NCBI GenBank assembly: GCA_038087875.1
Contig: CM075991.1
Location: 11,472,001-11,536,000, forward strand
Source of the DNA: Malacoraja senta
Taxonomy: Eukaryota
Direction of reading: 5' to 3'
DNA length: 64,000 bases
Shown: in pieces, positions 5,009 through 56,514 of the stretch
Layout of the letters: each line of letters opens with the position of its first letter
Position numbering within the stretch: the stretch's first letter is position 1
The notes under the pieces: generated by a model
Told to the model about the DNA's origin: nothing
The model's input: the letters and a program-made list of their open reading frames with translations, nothing else
Database searches by the model: none
Made by a program: the position numbers and the translations under genes

Positions 5009-5080
5009 GAATAAACCTGCCAATGTTCTGTCTGTTACAAGCGTCTAACCTGTTGTTTTCCTCCCTGCGCCCACCTGAAG

Positions 5081-6131
5081 CTGCTGGCTGGCCTGGAAGC
5101 CGAGCCTGGGTGCTTTCTACGTGCCAGCAGGCTTCACCGTACTGGTCAGTTGGATCTACCTACTGGGTGCCGGCCTGCAGCTGGGCTGCCGACGGCGGGG
5201 CAAGGCCGATGCCGGGGGATTGCCGGAGCAGCCGGCGGTCAGCGGCGGCCAGGGCCCGGACTCGGCCTCGGTCAGCGGGCCCTCTCCGGCCACCGACATC
5301 GTGTATTCGCTGGAAGCGCGGCTGTGGGCACTGGCCGGAACTCAGCTGCTCTTCGTCGGCCTGTGGATCTGCGGGGCACTGTCAGTGTGGGGGACGCCGC
5401 CGTTGGCCGTCCTCTTCAGCTGCCTGTACGGGGTGGGGGCCGTGGCTCTGGGCCTCTTTGTGCTCATCCACCACTGCCTCCGGCGGCACGACGTGTGTGG
5501 GCCGTGGCGGGGCTGTGCCCGGCAGCCGGGGGCAGAGGCTGGCGGCTCCCCGGCCCCCCCTCCGGCCGGCCCGGGCCCCGAGGCTGGCGGCAGCCCCTTC
5601 TCGGCGGGCGGCCAGTGCAAGATGACCAACCTGCAGGCGGCGCTGAGCCAGGGAGACCGCGGCGCTGCCGCCAGGAGCCCGACTCCGTGCGTGGACAGCG
5701 AGGCGGAGGCCGAGGACAAGGCGCCGGCCTGCCGTGGCCACAGGACCCGGACTAAGCCGCCAGTGGACGGCAAACAGCAGCGGCTGAGGGCGCTGAGAGC
5801 CGCCGCCGCCGCCACCACCTCGGACGCGGCCTCGAGCGACACCGGCAGCCCGGCGGGCAGTGGGCGTCTGAGTAACGGCAGGCCGGGCCGGCACGCCAGC
5901 CACAGCCCGTCGGAGGGCAGCGACAGCAGCGGACAGGCCCCAGGCTCAGGCTCAGGCTCGGGCCCGAGGCCGGGCCTACAGGCCAGCGTCAGCCGGGACA
6001 GCCTGAAGCAGGCCGGTCCCCTGGAGAAGGAGGTGAAGCGGAGGTCCTACCCGCAGAACGGCGCTCAGAGGGCCGGCGAGACCGGAGCCACCATCAGCGC
6101 TGGTCTGTGGAAGAGCGAGACCACGGTGTAA
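5081..6131 (+). CDS. ADGRA2: ADGRA2 terminal coding exon: TM5-TM7 and cytoplasmic tail with PDZ-binding motif
   Basis: Acceptor cctgaag|C. Translates (Y)CWLAWKPSLGAFYVP...LFSCLYGVGAVALGLFVLIHHCLRRHDV...KRRSYP...GLWKSETTV*, with stop TAA at 6129-6131. KRRSYP and GLWKSETTV match the ADGRA2 C-terminus. Confidence 0.95.
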
Positions 6132-18008: not shown

Positions 18009-20618
18009 ATAAATGCTATATTTGTCAACAAAACAAACACCACCAACATAGACGGTTCGGTTGGTGCCACCATACAAACGGCTTTGTATAGGAAGATGCT
18101 GGTTTAAACCGAAGATAGCCACGAAAAGCCGGATTAACTCAGCGGGTCAGACAGCATCTCCGGAGAGAAGGAATGGGTAACGTTTCTGGTCGAGACCTAT
18201 TCCTTTTCTCCAGAGATGCTCTATAAACTTCAAGACAATGCCAGTGTTTGACAACTGTTTGGGGCTCAGCCCCATGTTGATGCCTTGCTGCTTGTCGCTG
18301 GCAGCTCGTCTGAAGAATAGATTTTCACAGCCAGCCTTCCCCTGTTGCTATGGCGATGAAAGCCTTGATAAAAATAAACTCGGCTGCAATGTGCCACCAT
18401 CAATAATAAACCTCTCCGGTGTTTGTGAGCGTAGGCACATATTTTCACAAACCTCTGGATAATAAAAGTACCAGATTAAAGCGATTGGGAGCAGCTCTCT
18501 GCCTGGCTTCACCAGATTGATCCCTGGGATAGCGGGACCGTCATATGAGGAAAGATTGAAAAGACTAGGCTTGTATTCACTGGAGTTTAGAAGGATGAGG
18601 GGGGTTCTTATAGAAACATATAAAATTATAAAAGGACTGGACAAGCTGGATGCAGGAAAAATGTTCCCAATGTTGGGCGAGTCCAGAACCAGGGGCCACA
18701 GTCTTAGAATAAAGGGGAGGTCATTTAAGACTGAGGTGAGAAAAAACGTTTTCACCCAGAGAGTTGTGAATTTATGGAATTCCCTGCCACAGAGGGCAGT
18801 GGAGGCCAAGTCACTGGATGGATTTAAGAGAGAGTTAGATAGAGCTCTAGGGGCTGGTGGAGTCGAGGGATATGGGGAGAAGGCAGGCACGGGTTATTGA
18901 TAGGGGACGATCAGCCATGATGACAATGAATGGCGGTGCTGGCTCGAAGGGCCGAATGGCCTCCTCCTGCACCTATTTTCTATGTTTCCTTGTGACCCAC
19001 AAAAGCACGGGGAGATGAGATTAGTTGAACTTGGCATCAAGTTCAGTACAGACATCGTGGGCCGAAGGGCCTCTTCCTGCACCGTGCTGTTCTACATAGG
19101 AAGGAACTGCAGATGCTGGTTTAAGCCTCAGATGGAGACAAAAAGCTGGAGTAACTCAGTGGGTCAGACGGCATCTCTGGAGGAAAGGAATGGGTGACTT
19201 TTTTGGGTTCTGAAGAAGGGCCTCGACCCGAGACGTCACCCATTCCTTTGCTCCAGATATGCTGTCTGACCCACTGAGTTACTGCAGGTTTTGGTGTCTA
19301 TCTTCTATGCGCTCTGTGTTCTAACCCAACCATGCAGAACTAGTAAGCCCCTGGAAAACCAGCAACTGTGCTCTAAATATTACCAAGGTTCTTGGAATTG
19401 CATGGAAAGTGTGAAACATATGCAGAACCATACAGACCCGTGGACAGAGACACCAAGCATCAGGTCACTTGTAAGTTTATTGTTCATGCAGCTGAAACAC
19501 CGCTAAAAGCCAGTTAGTTTATACCGGAAAGGCCGTGAGTTGCAGAATGAGAATCTTTAACATTTTTTTAAAATTCAGCAGCTGAACTATTAAAGCTTCC
19601 AAACCGATACATCACATTGCGGAAATTCACACTGAAACCATGACCACGTCGTAGCAAGGAGAATGCATTAAAACTATCTGGCCACACGCCTTTCAACAAT
19701 GCTGCTATTCCTTTATAAAAAATGTAGTTTAGTTTAGATACAGCGCGGAAACAGGCCCTTCGGCCCACCGAGTCCGTGCCGACCAGCCGATCCCCGCACA
19801 TTAACACTATCCTACACACAATGTTTACATCTACCAAGCCAATATACCTACAAACCTGCACGTCTTTGCCGTGTGGGAGGAAACCGAAGATCTCGGCGAA
19901 AACCCGCGCAGGTCACGGGGAGAACGTACAGACTCCGTGCAGACAGTGCCCGTAGTCGGGATCGAACCCGGGTTTCCAGCGCTGCAAGGCAGCAACTCTA
20001 CCGCTGCGCCACCGTGCCGTGACCCTTGGAGTCAAATGAAAATCATTTCATCTGATTTGGGAGAAGATGGACAGTTGAGAGGAGGGAGTGAGAATAGGAT
20101 GGTTAATTAAAATGAAAGGTGACTGAAAGCTCAGGGTCAGCCTTTGGAAACAGACGCCCCTGCTGAGCAGCTTTAGGTCTATTTTAGTCAAGCGTACCCA
20201 GGTACGGTGAATAGCTTTGTTTCGCAGCGCTATCAGGTCAGATCAGATAACACAACGCATAACTTCAAACTCCAGTACAACAGGTAGAGCAAAGGGGAAG
20301 ATACAGATAGCAGAATGTAGTTCTCAGCGTTGTAGCGCATCAGTTCCAGGGACAAAGCCAATGTCTGCAATGTGGTAGAGGTGCCTTAGCTTGTGGAAGG
20401 ACCGTTCAGAAGTCACCTAATCGGAACCTCGTTTCTGTCCTGCAGAGGTTCTGGAGGGAAAAAAAAGTCAACTGGACATTGCCAATGGCATGTACATCCC
20501 TAATCACAGTGGGGTTCTGAAATCGGCCGCAGGGCACGTGTTCGGCCACTGGTACCGACAGGCCCAGCTCCTTAACAATGGACTGTGGCGGCACCAAACG
20601 TGGTGAATAAACAGTTGT

Positions 20619-20624
20619 TTTATT
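20619..20624 (-). terminator. Candidate poly(A) signal (AATAAA) of the prion-family gene
   Basis: TTTATT on + reads AATAAA on -, about 790 nt downstream of the stop codon, followed by T/GT-rich sequence on -. Confidence 0.5.
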
Positions 20625-21413
20625 CACATAATAGGTGGAAATACATAGACGTTTGGTCCTCTAACATAATGTCATTGTTGCTGCTGCTGCGGCTGAGCGT
20701 GGGTGTTGTCTACCTGTCGACTTGTGACCTCCAGGTGAGATCTGCTCAAGCACTAGGACACTACCCCTAAACCCATGACATCACGTGACAGCCCCCGCCT
20801 CACGAGGGCGGTGGAGGCAGGTTCTCTGGATGCTTTCAAGAGAGAGCTAGATAGGGCTCTTAAAAATAGCGGAGTCAGGGGATATGGGGAGAAGGCAGGA
20901 ACGGGGTACTGATTGGGGATGATCAGCCATGATCACATTGATGGCGGTGCTGGCTCGAAGGGCCAAATGGCCTACTCCTGCACCTATTGTCACCACTGAC
21001 GAAGGTTCGACTGTTGGTGGTCTGAACATAAGGTGATGCCACAGGGCATTACTTTGGGGTTAAAGCATTTAAAAAACAATGCTCCCAAAGAGTTGGAGAG
21101 GTTTGACCCAACTGGACTTGCGAAGCTTCTCTTGCCCGTGCAGTTGGTGGAGTTGGGAGTGAAGGCGATGGGGAACTTCTCAAAAGAGGTGCATATTCCG
21201 CTGGCAAGCTGCGCTGTCAAAGCTAGGAGTAGGTTAAATGGGCTGAACGGCCTTTGTGCAAGAGATCTGGGATGGGGTCCAGGGCATGGCAGTCTCAGTT
21301 GGACTGCATCACTACAGTGCAATGGGGTAACAGGATGAAATTCAGGGAAGCACAGAGGAGGTGGTTAGGAACGACGCCAGCCTTTGTTGGTCAGGCAGAC
21401 CCTGGCGACCAGG

Positions 21414-21791
21414 TTAAGCTGAAACACAAGGAGCCAGGAGGAACATTGAACTGACCAGCCACAGGCTGCCCAGTGGACTGACCACACCATTGCTCCAGGT
21501 GTCCACCCAGGTCCCGTTGATCTGCTGATAGCGGTTGTTCCGCAGGTGGCTCTCGGACCGGCCTCCACTGAGGACCGAGCCCAGGATCATCCCCCCCGCC
21601 AGTCCCCCCACCCCAGCCGCTGCGATCTTCGCCTTGTTGGACATTCCCTTCTTGGGCTTGTACCCGGTATTGGGCTTGTACCCGGATTGGGGCCGGCCAG
21701 AACTCTTCCAGCCGCCGGCCACAAGGAGGATGTCGCTCAGGGCCCCGGTGAGGATGAGAAGCACACAGGCAGAGACCATCTCCTGCCTCAT
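21414..21791 (-). CDS. Prion-family (PrP/Shadoo-like) GPI-anchored protein, 125 aa, single coding exon
   Basis: Kozak ccaccATG with a splice acceptor 10 nt upstream. Hydrophobic signal peptide, then GGW, two PxxGYK hexapeptides and basic KPKK. The Ala/Gly hydrophobic stretch KAKIAAAGVGGLAGGMILGSVLS resembles PrP [23 protein letters not shown]. One NGT sequon and a hydrophobic C-terminal GPI-signal-like tail follow. Confidence 0.85.
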   Translation of the reverse strand: MRQEMVSACVLLILTGALSDILLVAGGWKSSGRPQSGYKPNTGYKPKKGMSNKAKIAAAGVGGLAGGMILGSVLSGGRSESHLRNNRYQQINGTWVDTWSNGVVSPLGSLWLVSSMFLLAPCVSA

Positions 21792-23169
21792 GGTGGATTA
21801 TCTGGCCAAACCAAAAAGAGAGAGAAGTCAGGTTTCATTTACTTTATTACCATGTGTACCGAGGTACAGTGAAAAGCTTTTTTATTGAGTGGTATCAGAC
21901 TCATCGCCTTCAATCATAGAAACATAGAAAATAGGTGCAGGAAGAGGCCATTCGGCCCTTCGAGCCAGCACCACCATTCATTGTGATCATGGCTGTTCGT
22001 CCCCAATCAATAACCCGTGCCTGCCTTCTCCCCATATCCCTTGACTCCACTAGCCCCTAGAGCTCTATCTAACTCTCTCTTAAATCCATCCAGTGACTTG
22101 GCCTCCACTGCCCTCTGTGGCAGGGAATTCCACAAATTCACAACTCTCTGGGTGAAAATCAATTCATCCGATTCGGGAGAATCCGATTTCCTTTGAGTGT
22201 AGATCAGTTTTTTTTTTTTTAATATACAGTGCGGAAACAGTCCTTTCGGCCCACCGAGTCCGTGCCGACCAGCGACCCCCCGCACGTTAACACTATCCTA
22301 CACACATTAGAGACAATTTACACATACACCAAGCCAATTAACCTACACACCTGCATGTCTTTGGAGCGTGGGAGGGAGGAAACTGAAGATCTCGGAGAAA
22401 ACCCACGCAGGTCACTGGGAGAACGTACAAACTGCGTTCAGACAGCACCCGTAGTCGGGATCGAACCCGGGTCTGTGGCGCTGTAAGGCAGCAGCTCTAC
22501 CCGCTGTGCCACTGCGCCCACCGGTAGATCCTTTCATGAGATTTCCCCACATAGAAAGAAAAAATCTGGCGGCCCCACCATCAGGCTCCCAGCGCACAAC
22601 TCCAGAAAGGGAAAAGTGACAGTCTCTCTAGAATTAGACGGTCGCTTGGGATGCATAACGCCACGAAACTCTGGCTTCCACTCATAGAGCAACATGGGCC
22701 TCATGGTGATGTGGTGGAACATCCAAGGAGAACATCCACCATACAACATGTCCCAGCAAGGGAGAGAGGCAGCCATCCAGCTACGGTGGGGGAGGAATGC
22801 GACGTTTTGCATTTCAATTGTTGATTTCCCAAATCACGCCTCAATATATTCTGAAGAAGGGTCTCGACCTGAAACGTCACCCATTCCTTCTCACTAGAGA
22901 TGCTGCCTGTCCCACTGAGTTACTCCAGCTTTTTATGTTTATCTTCAATATATTAGCTGGTGGAGTCTTTCATAAGGAAACAGTAACCGGAAACGCATTG
23001 TGTTTAGAGGGTGTCCTTGTCCACCAGACTTAACATACAGCGAGAGATTAGGAACGCAAGTGTTTTTTTATTGCAAGATGGCTTGAGTACATGATGGGAG
23101 GTCTATTTTTCTTGCCGAGACCACATCTGGAATAGCCTGGCCATCCTGCCAGGAGGATCAATGAGGATT

Positions 23170-36592: not shown

Positions 36593-39478
36593 TGTAAAGA
36601 AGTTCCAACGACACACTGTTACTTTACTATCTTTATTCATACTGGAGCATTACACATTGCACTAGCTGTACGTGGTCTGTCACAGGAACTAGAGAGCGAT
36701 CTGTGGGTGGGGAGGTTGTAGTTATACTTGTGATATGGGGAGTGGTTAGTAGTGATGAGGTCACTATATTAAAGGCACATGCATATATCATCTACATCCT
36801 TCCCCTTGGAAACGACAGGCAAATACCATAGTGACAGGTCGACCACGGCTCATGCGCTGGGACGGTTAAACAAAATCGCCATAGCGGACAGGCGGTTTGA
36901 CAACACGTCCCGACCGGGTTCGCATCTCGCCACCCTCCCTTCCGGCAGGAAGAAGAGGCACCGATGGGGGCAGACGAACCGGAAAGGGGGAAACGGGAGG
37001 AGACGGAGGAGACCGCGGCACCAAAACCGGAGGTGATGCGGGATCAGGAGCGGGCAGAGCGCGGGCAGGCGAGCGAGGACTAGCCGGAGTAGGGTGGGAC
37101 GGAAGGAGTTGAGGTGGTGTAGACCGTTGCATGTTAGGAAGGACGGGCAGAGCATCGCCCGGACGCGGAAACTGCAGTGGGGGAGCAAAGGGATCCGCGG
37201 CAGGAGGACGCGGCTCGTTGACGAGCCGAAGGTGCTGGCGGGACCGTCGGTAAATGGTTCCCGCATGGTCGACGAGATAAGACCTGGGCGATCCCGCAGA
37301 GCCGACGACGGTAGCGAGCTTGGAGTGACCGGAAGGGGTCTGCATGCGGACAACTTGACCGGGGAAGAGGCACGGCAGTGGGTGGCAGGACCTGTCATGG
37401 GAACGCTTCTGGACATCGTGCCTGAAGGCAATGCGTTTCTGAACAGCAGCAGGCGTGAGGACAGACGGTATGAGGGAGCGCTGGGCCACAGGGAGCGGGA
37501 GTCTGGTAGCGCGAGACATGAGCCGCTGAGCAGGGGAGCCCATGGCAGAGTCGCGGGAGATGTTGCGGAGGTTGAGGAGGGCCAGATAGAAATCGGAGTT
37601 GGATAAACGACATTGTTCCAGCAGGTTCTTTGCACTGCGGACGGCGCGCTCGGCCAAACCGTTGCTTTGCGGGTACTCCGGGCTGCTGGTGAAATGGTGG
37701 AAATTCCATCTGGAAGCGAGAGCTTTAAACTCGGAGCTCGTGAACTGGCTGCCATTGTCCGACTGCAGGCTTGCCGGGGGGCCAAAAGTGCAAAAATGAT
37801 GGCATAACGTGTCGATGACGGCCGAAGAGGTTAGGGAATGCAGCCGGTCGACCTCGAACCAGCTGGAGTAGGGGTCAACGACAACCAGGAAGTGTTTGCC
37901 CCGCCACTCGAAAATGTCGACGGCATCTGCCATCCAGGGCAGTTCGGGCGCGGGCTGCTGCAGAAGCGGCTGGCGCTGCTGGTGGGGGGCGAGACTGTTG
38001 CAGGTGGAACACGAGGAGACCCTCTCCCGGATGTATTGGGCCATACCAGGCCAGTAGAACTGGCTCCGGGCGAGAGACACGGTGGCTTCGGCCCCAGGAT
38101 GTCCGCGGTGAGCGACCTGAAAATAGTGGTCGTGCAGCGCAGCGGGCACGACCACCTTGTGACCCTTCACCACCATGCCGTCGTGTAGTACGAGCTCATC
38201 ACGGACCAGGAAGTAGGGCACGGCGCCAGCCGGCAACGCGGAACGACGGTCGGGCCAGCCCCGCTGGATGAAGGCAGAAAGCTGTTGCAGGGCAGGGTCA
38301 TTGGCAGTGTGTTCAACCAGGGACTTCATCTGCTGTGAAGGGACGATGTTCACTTGGAGCACCATCAGATCAGACATCTCATAGGGGTGGCGATCGGTGG
38401 ACGTTAGCGGGGCGCGAGACAACGTGTCGGCCACGAACATGTCCTTGCCCTTACGATAAACCACGTTGAACGTGAAGCGCTGGAGCTGCAGCATCATGCG
38501 CTGCAGGCGTGATGAGGCAACATGGATCGACTTGTTGAGAATGGTGACAAGCGGCTGGTGGTCAGTTTCAATGGTGAAAGTGTTGCCCAGGACGTAGTCT
38601 TTGAATTTGGAGCAGGCAAACACCACGGCCAGTAGCTCCTTCTCGATCTGCGCGTAGTGCTGTTCGGTGGCGGTCATGGTGCGGGATGCGTAGGAGACAG
38701 GCAGCTGTAGGCCGTCATGGACCTGGAGACAGGCGGCACTGAGTCCGAACTGAGAGGCGTCGCAGGTGAGGACAATGGGACGCTGCAGGTCAAAAAACTT
38801 GAGTGTGGGGGTGCTGATTAGCTTGGATTTAAGGATGTCGAAGGCTTTCTGGTGGTGGGGGAACCAAACCCAGGACGTGTCCTTTTTTATCAAATCCCTC
38901 AGGGGAGCGCTGAGGTCGGGGATGAACTTCCCCAGGTAGTTCACCATGCCCAGGAAGCGTTGTAGGCCTGCCACATCAGTAGGAGAAGGCATCCCGGAAA
39001 TGGCAGACGTTTTTTGCGGGTCGGGTTTCAGCCCCTCGGCGGTGAATACATGTCCAACATAGGTGACCTCCGGGACGCGAAATCGGCACTTCTTGGGGTT
39101 CAGTTTCAAGTTGATTTTCCGGTCCCGGTCCAGGACCTGGCGGAGGTTGAAGTCGTGTTCGGCGATGTCCTTACCGTAAACGAGGAAATGAGAAGGTTGG
39201 GGAAACAAAAAACTGGGACAAAATTAAATGATAAACCGATAGACAGGAGGCGCAAGGTAAGAGGTATGACACCATGTAAAGAAGTTCTAACGACACATCA
39301 TTACTTTACTATCTTTATTCATACTGGAGCGTTACATATTGCACTAGCTGTACGTGGTCTGTCTCAGGAACTAGAGAGCGATCTGTGGGTGGGGAGGTTG
39401 TAGTTATACTTGTGATATGGGGAGTGGTTAGTAGTGATGAGGTCACTATATTAAAGGCACATGCATATATCATCTACA
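36593..39478 (-). mobile_element. Gypsy/Ty3 LTR retrotransposon, internally deleted
   Basis: 204-bp TG...CA LTRs at 36593-36796 and 39275-39478 with 5-bp TSD ATCTC. PBS-like TGGTGTCA next to the 5' LTR and PPT AAGGGGAAGGA before the 3' LTR. Confidence 0.95.
36866..39208 (-). CDS. Truncated Gypsy pol ORF (RT C-terminal half, RNase H, integrase), 780 aa open
   Basis: FLGMVNYL; RNase H CDAS...YAQIEKELLA...ETDHQPL; integrase HHCC (HRGH...CSTC) and DDE (AVDIF, SDNG, AERAV). Domain order RT-RH-IN indicates Gypsy. Confidence 0.9.
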   Translation of the reverse strand: MFPQPSHFLVYGKDIAEHDFNLRQVLDRDRKINLKLNPKKCRFRVPEVTYVGHVFTAEGLKPDPQKTSAISGMPSPTDVAGLQRFLGMVNYLGKFIPDLSAPLRDLIKKDTSWVWFPHHQKAFDILKSKLISTPTLKFFDLQRPIVLTCDASQFGLSAACLQVHDGLQLPVSYASRTMTATEQHYAQIEKELLAVVFACSKFKDYVLGNTFTIETDHQPLVTILNKSIHVASSRLQRMMLQLQRFTFNVVYRKGKDMFVADTLSRAPLTSTDRHPYEMSDLMVLQVNIVPSQQMKSLVEHTANDPALQQLSAFIQRGWPDRRSALPAGAVPYFLVRDELVLHDGMVVKGHKVVVPAALHDHYFQVAHRGHPGAEATVSLARSQFYWPGMAQYIRERVSSCSTCNSLAPHQQRQPLLQQPAPELPWMADAVDIFEWRGKHFLVVVDPYSSWFEVDRLHSLTSSAVIDTLCHHFCTFGPPASLQSDNGSQFTSSEFKALASRWNFHHFTSSPEYPQSNGLAERAVRSAKNLLEQCRLSNSDFYLALLNLRNISRDSAMGSPAQRLMSRATRLPLPVAQRSLIPSVLTPAAVQKRIAFRHDVQKRSHDRSCHPLPCLFPGQVVRMQTPSGHSKLATVVGSAGSPRSYLVDHAGTIYRRSRQHLRLVNEPRPPAADPFAPPLQFPRPGDALPVLPNMQRSTPPQLLPSHPTPASPRSPARALPAPDPASPPVLVPRSPPSPPVSPFPVRLPPSVPLLPAGREGGEMRTRSGRVVKPPVRYGDFV

Positions 39479-56220: not shown

Positions 56221-56514
56221 CTAGGTCCGGTGACGCTTCGGAAGTCGTGTCCTCCGGGACCTTTTGGTGACGGGGTAATTTATAAACTCAAAGTGCCTTT
56301 GCCGGTCGCGGTTGGGGAAGAGCGGCTCCCCTTTGAACAGTCTTTTCATGAAGTGGACTTCTCTCTGGTTCTGCCTGGTCTTGGCTGCTTTCCGGGGTTG
56401 CCCTTTCCTGGTGAAGGCCATGTACCACCCTTCATACTTGGTGTTCCTCAGTGCTGTGTAGTTATTTTCCAGCAATATTTCCGTGAAAATGCAGTCCTTG
56501 CCCTTGCCGACCAG
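56221..56514 (-). CDS. FGF17: FGF17 terminal coding exon
   Basis: Acceptor tttttgcag|CTG. Translates [42 protein letters not shown]...[16 protein letters not shown]...FEFINYP...*, with stop TAG at 56223-56221. Confidence 0.92.

Follow-up and report, generated by a model that had tools for sequence, protein, structure and literature searches.

Introduction

How SPRN, PRNP and the short prion-related genes of fish are related to one another is unsettled. Almost all prion genes have a single coding exon according to PMC3203146, which also gives RASSF2 and SLC23A as neighbours of PRNP in fish and tetrapods. Shadoo (SPRN) carries a KGG/RGG box reported as conserved from fish to human (PMC2735946), and an Arg-rich Shadoo is recorded in the whale shark (PMC7024060); SPRN is described as lying beside GTP (MTG1) and PAOX across vertebrates (PMC1781936). 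Teleosts carry PrP-rel-1 (Sho2) and PrP-rel-2 (PrP3), described in PMC11711791 as short, GPI-anchored and equipped with a PrP-like core while lacking a complete globular domain. PMC1781936 treats SPRNB as a gene that appeared in the fish lineage once tetrapods had split off and places fish SPRNB between calsenilin and PrP1, with chicken PRNP adjoining PROM2; PMC2745754 offers two models of how Sho and PrP originated. Here we compare with these systems a gene of the skate Malacoraja senta, which a sequence-only reading had proposed as an under-described chondrichthyan prion paralogue.

Results

Coding sequence and protein layout

We analysed a window of 64,000 nucleotides (G000:C15:11472001-11536000) on a 14.3 Mb contig, in which the coding sequence and its parts are:

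21414..21791, minus strand: coding sequence, 125 aa plus stop, in one exon (ORF list, GC3, orthologues)
21714..21791, minus strand: predicted signal peptide, aa 1 to about 26, probable cleavage after G26 (hydropathy)
21627..21713, minus strand: basic N-terminal region, aa 27-55, with the conserved end GYKPKKG[ML]SNKAK (alignment)
21652..21691, minus strand: 18-nt tandem repeat, 2.3 copies, coding the doubled hexapeptide GYKPNT/GYKPKK
21564..21626, minus strand: Ala/Gly hydrophobic core, aa 56-76, IAAAGVGGLAGGMILGSVLSG, aligning to the PrP hydrophobic domain
21510..21518, minus strand: invariant N-glycosylation sequon N92-G-T (alignment, sequence scan)
21417..21494, minus strand: likely omega site (S100/N101/G102) and predicted GPI signal to aa 125 (rule-based)

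The intact 125-aa open reading frame of the sequence-only reading was confirmed on the minus strand at 21414-21791, stop included, but the longer span then given to it, 21414..21803, ends too far out in that it takes in the acceptor AG (21802-21803). Third-codon-position GC was 0.78 in the frame vs about 0.5 GC for the flanking kilobases, and the start context is TCCACCATGA. The skate protein carries 12 Lys+Arg vs 4 Asp+Glu, a single His, and no RG, RGG or KGG; its only Cys residues, 9 and 122, each lie within a signal sequence and leave the mature region without Cys, in agreement with the earlier claim that neither RG repeats nor a mature Cys pair is present.

Hydropathy revealed three hydrophobic segments (about aa 3-28, 54-77 and 102-125), and the signal-peptide peak (2.64 over aa 3-28) was seen in 4/4 proteins tested. 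The signal peptide and GPI-like tail were likewise predicted in all four, as had been proposed, on hydropathy and omega-site/small-residue rules rather than by SignalP or a GPI predictor. The claimed spacing of the remaining parts also stood, with the core at aa 56-76, the NGT sequon at N92 and about 24 aa (about 25 had been given) from the end of the core to the likely omega site. KPKK begins at residue 45, and the GYKP hexapeptide is doubled in skates and present as a single copy in catshark. Of the 217 ATG ORFs with 90-200 aa in the surrounding 284 kb, 2 passed a crude test for signal, core, sequon and hydrophobic tail, the second being a microsatellite ORF.

Conservation in skates and catshark

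Word-index and HMMER searches of 5.8 billion proteins recovered relatives that fall into 3 clusters at 90% identity, and a whole-library HMMER search found only 2 clusters at 50% identity, both elasmobranch; the gene has nearly been missed by protein databases, where it bears only 'uncharacterized' and 'hypothetical' names. Its relatives comprise five Logan proteins (on contigs of 1.0-1.1 kb; 113/125 identical to the skate query), Rhinoraja longicauda LOC144610373 ('uncharacterized', four RefSeq accessions, 97/122 identical) and scyTo_0019847 of the catshark Scyliorhinus torazame ('hypothetical', 57/121 identical). The skate and catshark proteins gave a local score of 256, whereas 1000 shuffles averaged 32.6 and never exceeded 65, and this locus was the only significant match of the catshark protein in the present genome (1/3 matches, E 7e-26).

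Conservation in other chondrichthyans, on which the sequence-only reading had staked its proposal, was observed: the ORF is kept in skates and catshark, with all five parts retained in frame. The basic region (aa 27-55) is the best-conserved part vs catshark (17/29 identical), S19, D20, L23, V24 and G26 are invariant in the signal region, and N101 and the tail motif PLGSxWxxSS are invariant across the aligned proteins. The ORF is a real, conserved elasmobranch gene, without a name in either NCBI record found. No description of a cartilaginous-fish gene of this kind was found in the literature searched; subscription papers may cover one.

The GGW-basic region and KPKK noted earlier are present as residues in the skate, but the W varies (GGRGR in Rhinoraja, DGKTS in catshark), and GGW was rejected as a PrP hallmark since its W is not conserved. 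Among the 10 ORF differences to run contigs contained in 40 of the 244 differences, 3 were synonymous and 7 nonsynonymous, on a single-base reading in which several differences fall in the same codons and the numbers are too few for inference.

Splicing and transcript evidence

The coding sequence is flanked by the following transcript features:

21792..21831, minus strand: 10-nt 5' UTR piece, acceptor AG (21802-21803), pyrimidine tract and CTGAC branch-like motif
20600..21413, minus strand: probable 3' UTR, whose true end may be further on (X6 contig, AATAAA)

The splice acceptor sits 10 nt ahead of the ATG, and the whole ORF lies in one exon, as is usual in the prion family. Of 24 listed sequencing runs, 4 were used as transcript evidence; these derive from other organisms, and that they are RNA is a guess. 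On expression, the evidence favours the gene: contigs of two probable RNA runs, X1 and X5, follow the exon over 21417-21804 and beyond the acceptor carry a further 53 and 47 nt without a genomic match there, the pattern expected from an upstream exon joined there. The X6 contig spans 20992-21614, and contigs of run X22 leave the ORF without cover. Unique flanking DNA (22522-22812) was essentially uncovered in all four runs (depth 0-0.44), and X1 and X5 contigs leave the unique 3' UTR at 21067-21260 uncovered. AATAAA occurs at 20619-20624, 790 nt past the stop; contigs go past it, also covering 20000-20565. The gene apparently yields a spliced transcript with the entire ORF in the last exon, spliced in relatives and expressed in 3/4 runs examined.

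A very common repeat lies inside the probable 3' UTR (about window 20800-20992). Run shares from the 24-run search are uninformative, because its query contained a common repeat.

Sequence, language-model and structure comparisons

A check against the Pfam Prion and Shadoo models, as the sequence-only reading had envisaged, gave no match in 5/5 family members scanned. PT-VENN, an unrelated Gly/Ala-rich Pfam model, matched at E 0.003, on par with PrP scores, so the core similarity could be partly compositional. In the PDB search, PrP entries took rows 1-30 of the 38 listed, with E 0.005 at best, the top three alignments beginning in vector-tag residues and the next having E 0.037-0.14; no Shadoo entry was among the rows, so this search cannot rank PrP against Sho. 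A four-sequence profile gave the PrP core at E 0.009, no better than the single sequence.

The nearest clusters by ESM were three from chordates that bear a Shadoo name or in part match Pfam Shadoo (0.93, 0.92 and 0.92; 187-190 shared features; Pfam Shadoo cover in 72%, 17% and 54% of members), followed by an unnamed 176-aa chordate cluster (0.88) and PrP (0.83); the recognition score of 1986 is under the tool's bar, which makes the 0.93 similarity weak evidence. On the earlier impression of a protein more PrP- than Shadoo-like, the two comparisons diverge: the PDB gives PrP alignments (with no Shadoo entry to compare), whereas ESM ranks Shadoo clusters above PrP.

AlphaFold2 with 4 sequences gave a pLDDT of 48.9 and no confident fold, with helices only over the three hydrophobic segments, a low confidence also expected from so shallow an alignment. 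An Atlas structure search with the catshark protein returned no TM above 0.46, and no longer homologues appeared among 8000 candidates, which is weak evidence. Protein homology searches returned no Sho, Sho2 or PrP3 sequence, and no significant teleost Sho2 or PrP3 appeared in the whole-library HMMER search. Taking sequence, layout, ESM and exon structure together, prion-family membership is very probable, weak as the sequence evidence itself is.

Genomic neighbourhood

A 284 kb exon scan revealed the order DOK-like (minus strand), XPO7-like (plus), ADGRA (plus), prion-family gene (minus) and FGF8/17-type (minus) on G000:C15:11347000-11529000, with two neighbouring exons inside the window:

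5079..6131, plus strand: final exon of an adhesion GPCR of the ADGRA family, with the ending ETTV, taken as ADGRA2/GPR124
56221..56514, minus strand: last exon of an FGF8/17-subgroup gene (Pfam FGF E 2.6e-15)

The XPO7-like neighbour matched Pfam TPR_XPO7 at E 6e-17. The FGF8/17-type exon scored 111 bits against FGF8 and 88 bits against FGF18 in the PDB, and is named FGF17 because its neighbours are DOK2-like and XPO7-like. We take the plus-strand neighbour to belong to the ADGRA family and to be the ADGRA2/GPR124 paralogue; the names DOK2, ADGRA2 and FGF17 are partly our assumption and partly from the literature. With neighbour paralogue names partly assumed in this way, the skate gene is placed on the Fgf17-Dok2-Kcnip3-Prom2 paralogon. 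The neighbours given in PMC6233590, where dok2, xpo7, fgf17, gpr124 and nkx6-3 are common loci, support the ADGRA2 name. PMC2446394 assigns Fgf17, Npm2, Dok2, Loxl2, Prom2 and Kcnip3 to one paralogon on chicken chromosome 22 and regards it as sister to the human chromosome 10 paralogon that holds Fgf8; human ADGRA1, NKX6-2 and SPRN are reported within one 1 Mb stretch at 10q26.3 (PMC12453924).

In the interval from XPO7 to FGF17 we noticed no NPM2 exon during that scan. An LTR retrotransposon pol lies between the gene and FGF17 (window 36866-39223, minus strand), with a 785-aa frame without stops that holds the RT end, RNase H and integrase.

On the same contig, a RASSF SARAH exon, presumably of RASSF2, lies at 3855041-3855187 (3.86 Mb), 7.6 Mb from the gene, and SLC23A exons lie at 6141186-6156605 (6.14-6.16 Mb), 5.3 Mb from it; the gene shares the contig with RASSF2 and SLC23A2 and is not immediately adjacent to them, as PRNP would be. 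The RASSF2-like and SLC23A-like genes, neighbours in other vertebrates, are separated here by 2.3 Mb. We interpret this split, together with a PROM2-like gene on unplaced contig C1700, as rearrangement or mis-scaffolding around the expected PRNP site. After the RASSF2 exon, a 330-aa open frame (L035, G000:C15:3866870-3867859, plus strand) resembles a large coding exon.

Among the matches listed, no YlqF-type or amine-oxidase match, as contiguity with MTG1/PAOX would give, fell on this contig, and KCNIP3 and LOXL2 were not located on it in our searches. No PrP-type ORF was found between the gene and FGF17, a stretch with a short N gap near 50.8-51.0 kb, or by profile among 3720 frames in 264 kb. 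Neighbour and contig evidence together place the gene on the PRNP/SPRNB side, beside a paralogue of a gene near SPRN.

A second ADGRA lies on contig C1, near a PROM1-like and a second FGF8-family gene, as expected of ADGRA3. Contig C1 (396 Mb, a fifth of the 1.94 Gb genome) holds the ADGRA3-like gene at 334.6 Mb, PROM1-like at 340 Mb and FGF18/24-like at 394.9 Mb, a set that corresponds to the expected fourth-chromosome paralogon.

Searches for SPRN and PRNP in the assembly

In this genome, the search for SPRN by PF14999 gave 3 weak matches, none above cut-off; PF00377 for PRNP gave no match, with its control also silent, and PF11587 (Prion_bPrPp) and PF11466 (Doppel) gave none above cut-off. 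A KGGRGG-type pattern produced 154 matches vs 223 for its reversed control, which is noise. The AAGAAAGA pattern produced 7 matches, of which the 3 examined were not SPRN and presumably belong to an antisense HES-like gene, a TICRR-like gene and a coiled-coil gene; the AAAGA[VI]xG core pattern produced 8, all examined and none prion-like. No Shadoo-like ORF was present in 10 kb past the MTG1-like gene on contig C3607, nor any PrP ORF in about 25-30 kb at the RASSF2 exon (625 frames, best E 1).

Only 2 FGF8-family genes were found in the assembly and the PROM2-like gene is on an unplaced contig, so the assembly looks incomplete. Because it seems incomplete and the searches are insensitive, failure to recover SPRN and PRNP does not show their absence, and since neither was found, three separate genes in one genome cannot be shown. 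For the existence of a true shark SPRN we rely on the Arg-rich whale-shark Shadoo described in PMC7024060.

Discussion

Identity of the gene

We consider the gene a genuine short prion-family member distinct from SPRN, most likely the elasmobranch representative of the teleost PrP-rel-1 (Sho2/SPRNB)/PrP-rel-2 (PrP3) line and a WGD sister of SPRN, with a probability of about 0.55. This reading is supported by conservation, splicing and expression, the single exon, the PrP rows in the PDB, the ESM neighbours, the lack of a confident fold and the paralogon position; it is weakened by the lack of Pfam and teleost matches, the differing micro-synteny, RASSF2 lying 7.6 Mb off, KCNIP3 not being located on the contig, and runs that come from other species. 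The earlier proposal of an under-described chondrichthyan gene of prion layout is supported: the gene is conserved, apparently spliced and expressed, unnamed in two NCBI records, and probably not SPRN, in view of the missing RGG box and of ADGRA2-like and FGF17-like neighbours on a contig with RASSF2 and SLC23A. A PrP-like core without a globular domain is not a new architecture, however, since teleost PrP-rel-1/Sho2 and PrP-rel-2/PrP3 already have it (PMC11711791). Grouping with SPRN2/Sho2, the outcome that the sequence-only reading had named as removing its novelty, is our leading explanation, the orthology itself being putative.

The gene might instead be a separate prion-family line, retained beside ADGRA2 as a WGD sister of SPRN and not orthologous to PrP-rel, which would then be later tandem PrP copies. 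That it adjoins no PrP gene, RASSF2 or KCNIP3, that the whole-library search held no teleost match, that its ADGRA neighbour mirrors ADGRA1 near SPRN, and that PMC1781936 takes SPRNB as a ray-finned-fish novelty are all consistent with this; we nevertheless regard it as unlikely, given a paralogon shared with SPRNB and PRNP, local rearrangement evident on the contig (RASSF2 and SLC23A 2.3 Mb apart) and the speed with which short disordered proteins lose detectable similarity. Loss of the globular domain from the elasmobranch PRNP itself, the 'PrP that lost its fold' of the sequence-only reading, is now a minor and rather improbable rival. In its favour, no PRNP was found in the assembly by Pfam models, by the core motif pattern or after the RASSF2 exon, the core and KPKK align to PrP, and NPGY in Rhinoraja matches the avian PrP repeat PHNPGY (PMC4101497), but the assembly looks incomplete, the Pfam controls gave no match anywhere, the gene is distant from RASSF2 and SLC23A, and NPGY is four residues in one species.

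It is improbable that an unrelated small GPI-anchored surface protein came to resemble PrP through the composition of its Gly/Ala segment, because the order and spacing of five parts, a single coding exon whose acceptor lies 10 nt ahead of the ATG, and the agreement of ESM neighbours and paralogon position on the prion family argue against it, even though no Pfam family matches, PT-VENN scores alike, and the best PDB E of 0.005 includes tag residues (0.037-0.14 without them). A relocated and diverged SPRN would account for none being found in the assembly and for the Shadoo names of the nearest ESM clusters; it is very improbable, given that the KGG/RGG box reported as conserved in Sho from fish to human (PMC2735946) is missing, that the whale shark has an Arg-rich Shadoo (PMC7024060), and that SPRN is described as staying beside MTG1/PAOX in vertebrates (PMC1781936), whereas the neighbours differ here.

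More tentatively, and on balance doubtfully, the gene might be the surviving WGD sister of SPRN in the ancestral ADGRA-FGF8/17 setting, a living stand-in for the short Lys-rich source of the PrP N-terminal half before the ZIP-derived globular domain, and thus a fifth vertebrate prion-family line, lost in tetrapods. If true, this would speak for the model that starts from a Sho-like gene. If the gene is, as we prefer, the counterpart of the bony-fish short prion-related proteins, its line would date to the jawed-vertebrate ancestor. A short elasmobranch paralogue on the PRNP-side paralogon, with SPRN near ADGRA1 as its mirror image on the sister paralogon, would place the split at the early vertebrate genome duplications and would allow the Sho/PrP origin models to be tested with shark genomes. 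For prion disease the gene has no evident bearing.

Possible mode of action

As predicted from the protein layout, the signal peptide would direct entry into the ER, N92 would receive a glycan, and near N101 the tail would be exchanged for a GPI anchor, so that a mature chain of about 75 disordered residues would be displayed on the outside of the cell. If Shadoo and the N-terminal part of PrP are a guide, the stretch rich in Lys and Arg may bind polyanions or membrane lipid, the hydrophobic core may mediate self- or PrP-type contacts, and the protein may serve in rafts as a modulator of signalling or protection; membrane-current and protective effects of Shadoo in cells are reported to be governed by its basic motif and hydrophobic domain (PMC5098206). 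Since conservation is strongest in the Lys-rich run that leads into the core, polyanion/membrane binding coupled to core contacts would be the likeliest mode, and with one His and no repeat array, copper binding of the PrP-octarepeat type is unlikely.

Comparison with known prion-family proteins

The skate gene shares with PRNP a KPK-basic stretch leading into a GG.LAGG.[IV]LGS.LS core and a single coding exon, and the PRNP-neighbour genes RASSF2 and SLC23A lie on its chromosome segment. Unlike PRNP, it has no three-helix domain and no disulfide (the mature region lacks Cys, about 24 aa follow the core, and PF00377 does not match), its only counterpart to an N-terminal repeat array is one doubled hexapeptide, in skates only, and no longer form was found. 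The skate protein and Shadoo agree in size, basic N-terminus, hydrophobic core, a single N-glycan site, predicted GPI signal, disorder and lack of a globular domain, and Shadoo-named clusters are nearest in ESM, whereas the skate gene lacks the KGG/RGG box and the (RXXX)n basic motif, as defined in PMC2735946 and PMC5098206, a match to Pfam Shadoo (PF14999) and the SPRN neighbours.

Teleost PrP-rel-2/PrP3/PrP-like is, like the skate protein, a short GPI protein with a conserved hydrophobic domain and without most of the globular fold, but it has His-rich hexarepeats and adjoins PrP2 and RASSF2, whereas the skate protein has one His and its gene lies 7.6 Mb from RASSF2. Teleost Sho2/SPRNB lies between calsenilin and PrP1, whereas the skate gene has no adjoining PrP gene and does not share the teleost PrP-rel position directly downstream of one. 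A similar run into the core, KGLS..KM.GA..AG, occurs in zebrafish Sho2. Teleost PrP-rel-1/Sho2/SPRNB and the skate gene are alike in being short, in the GPI anchor (predicted here), in a PrP-like core without a full globular domain, and in lying on the same paralogon.
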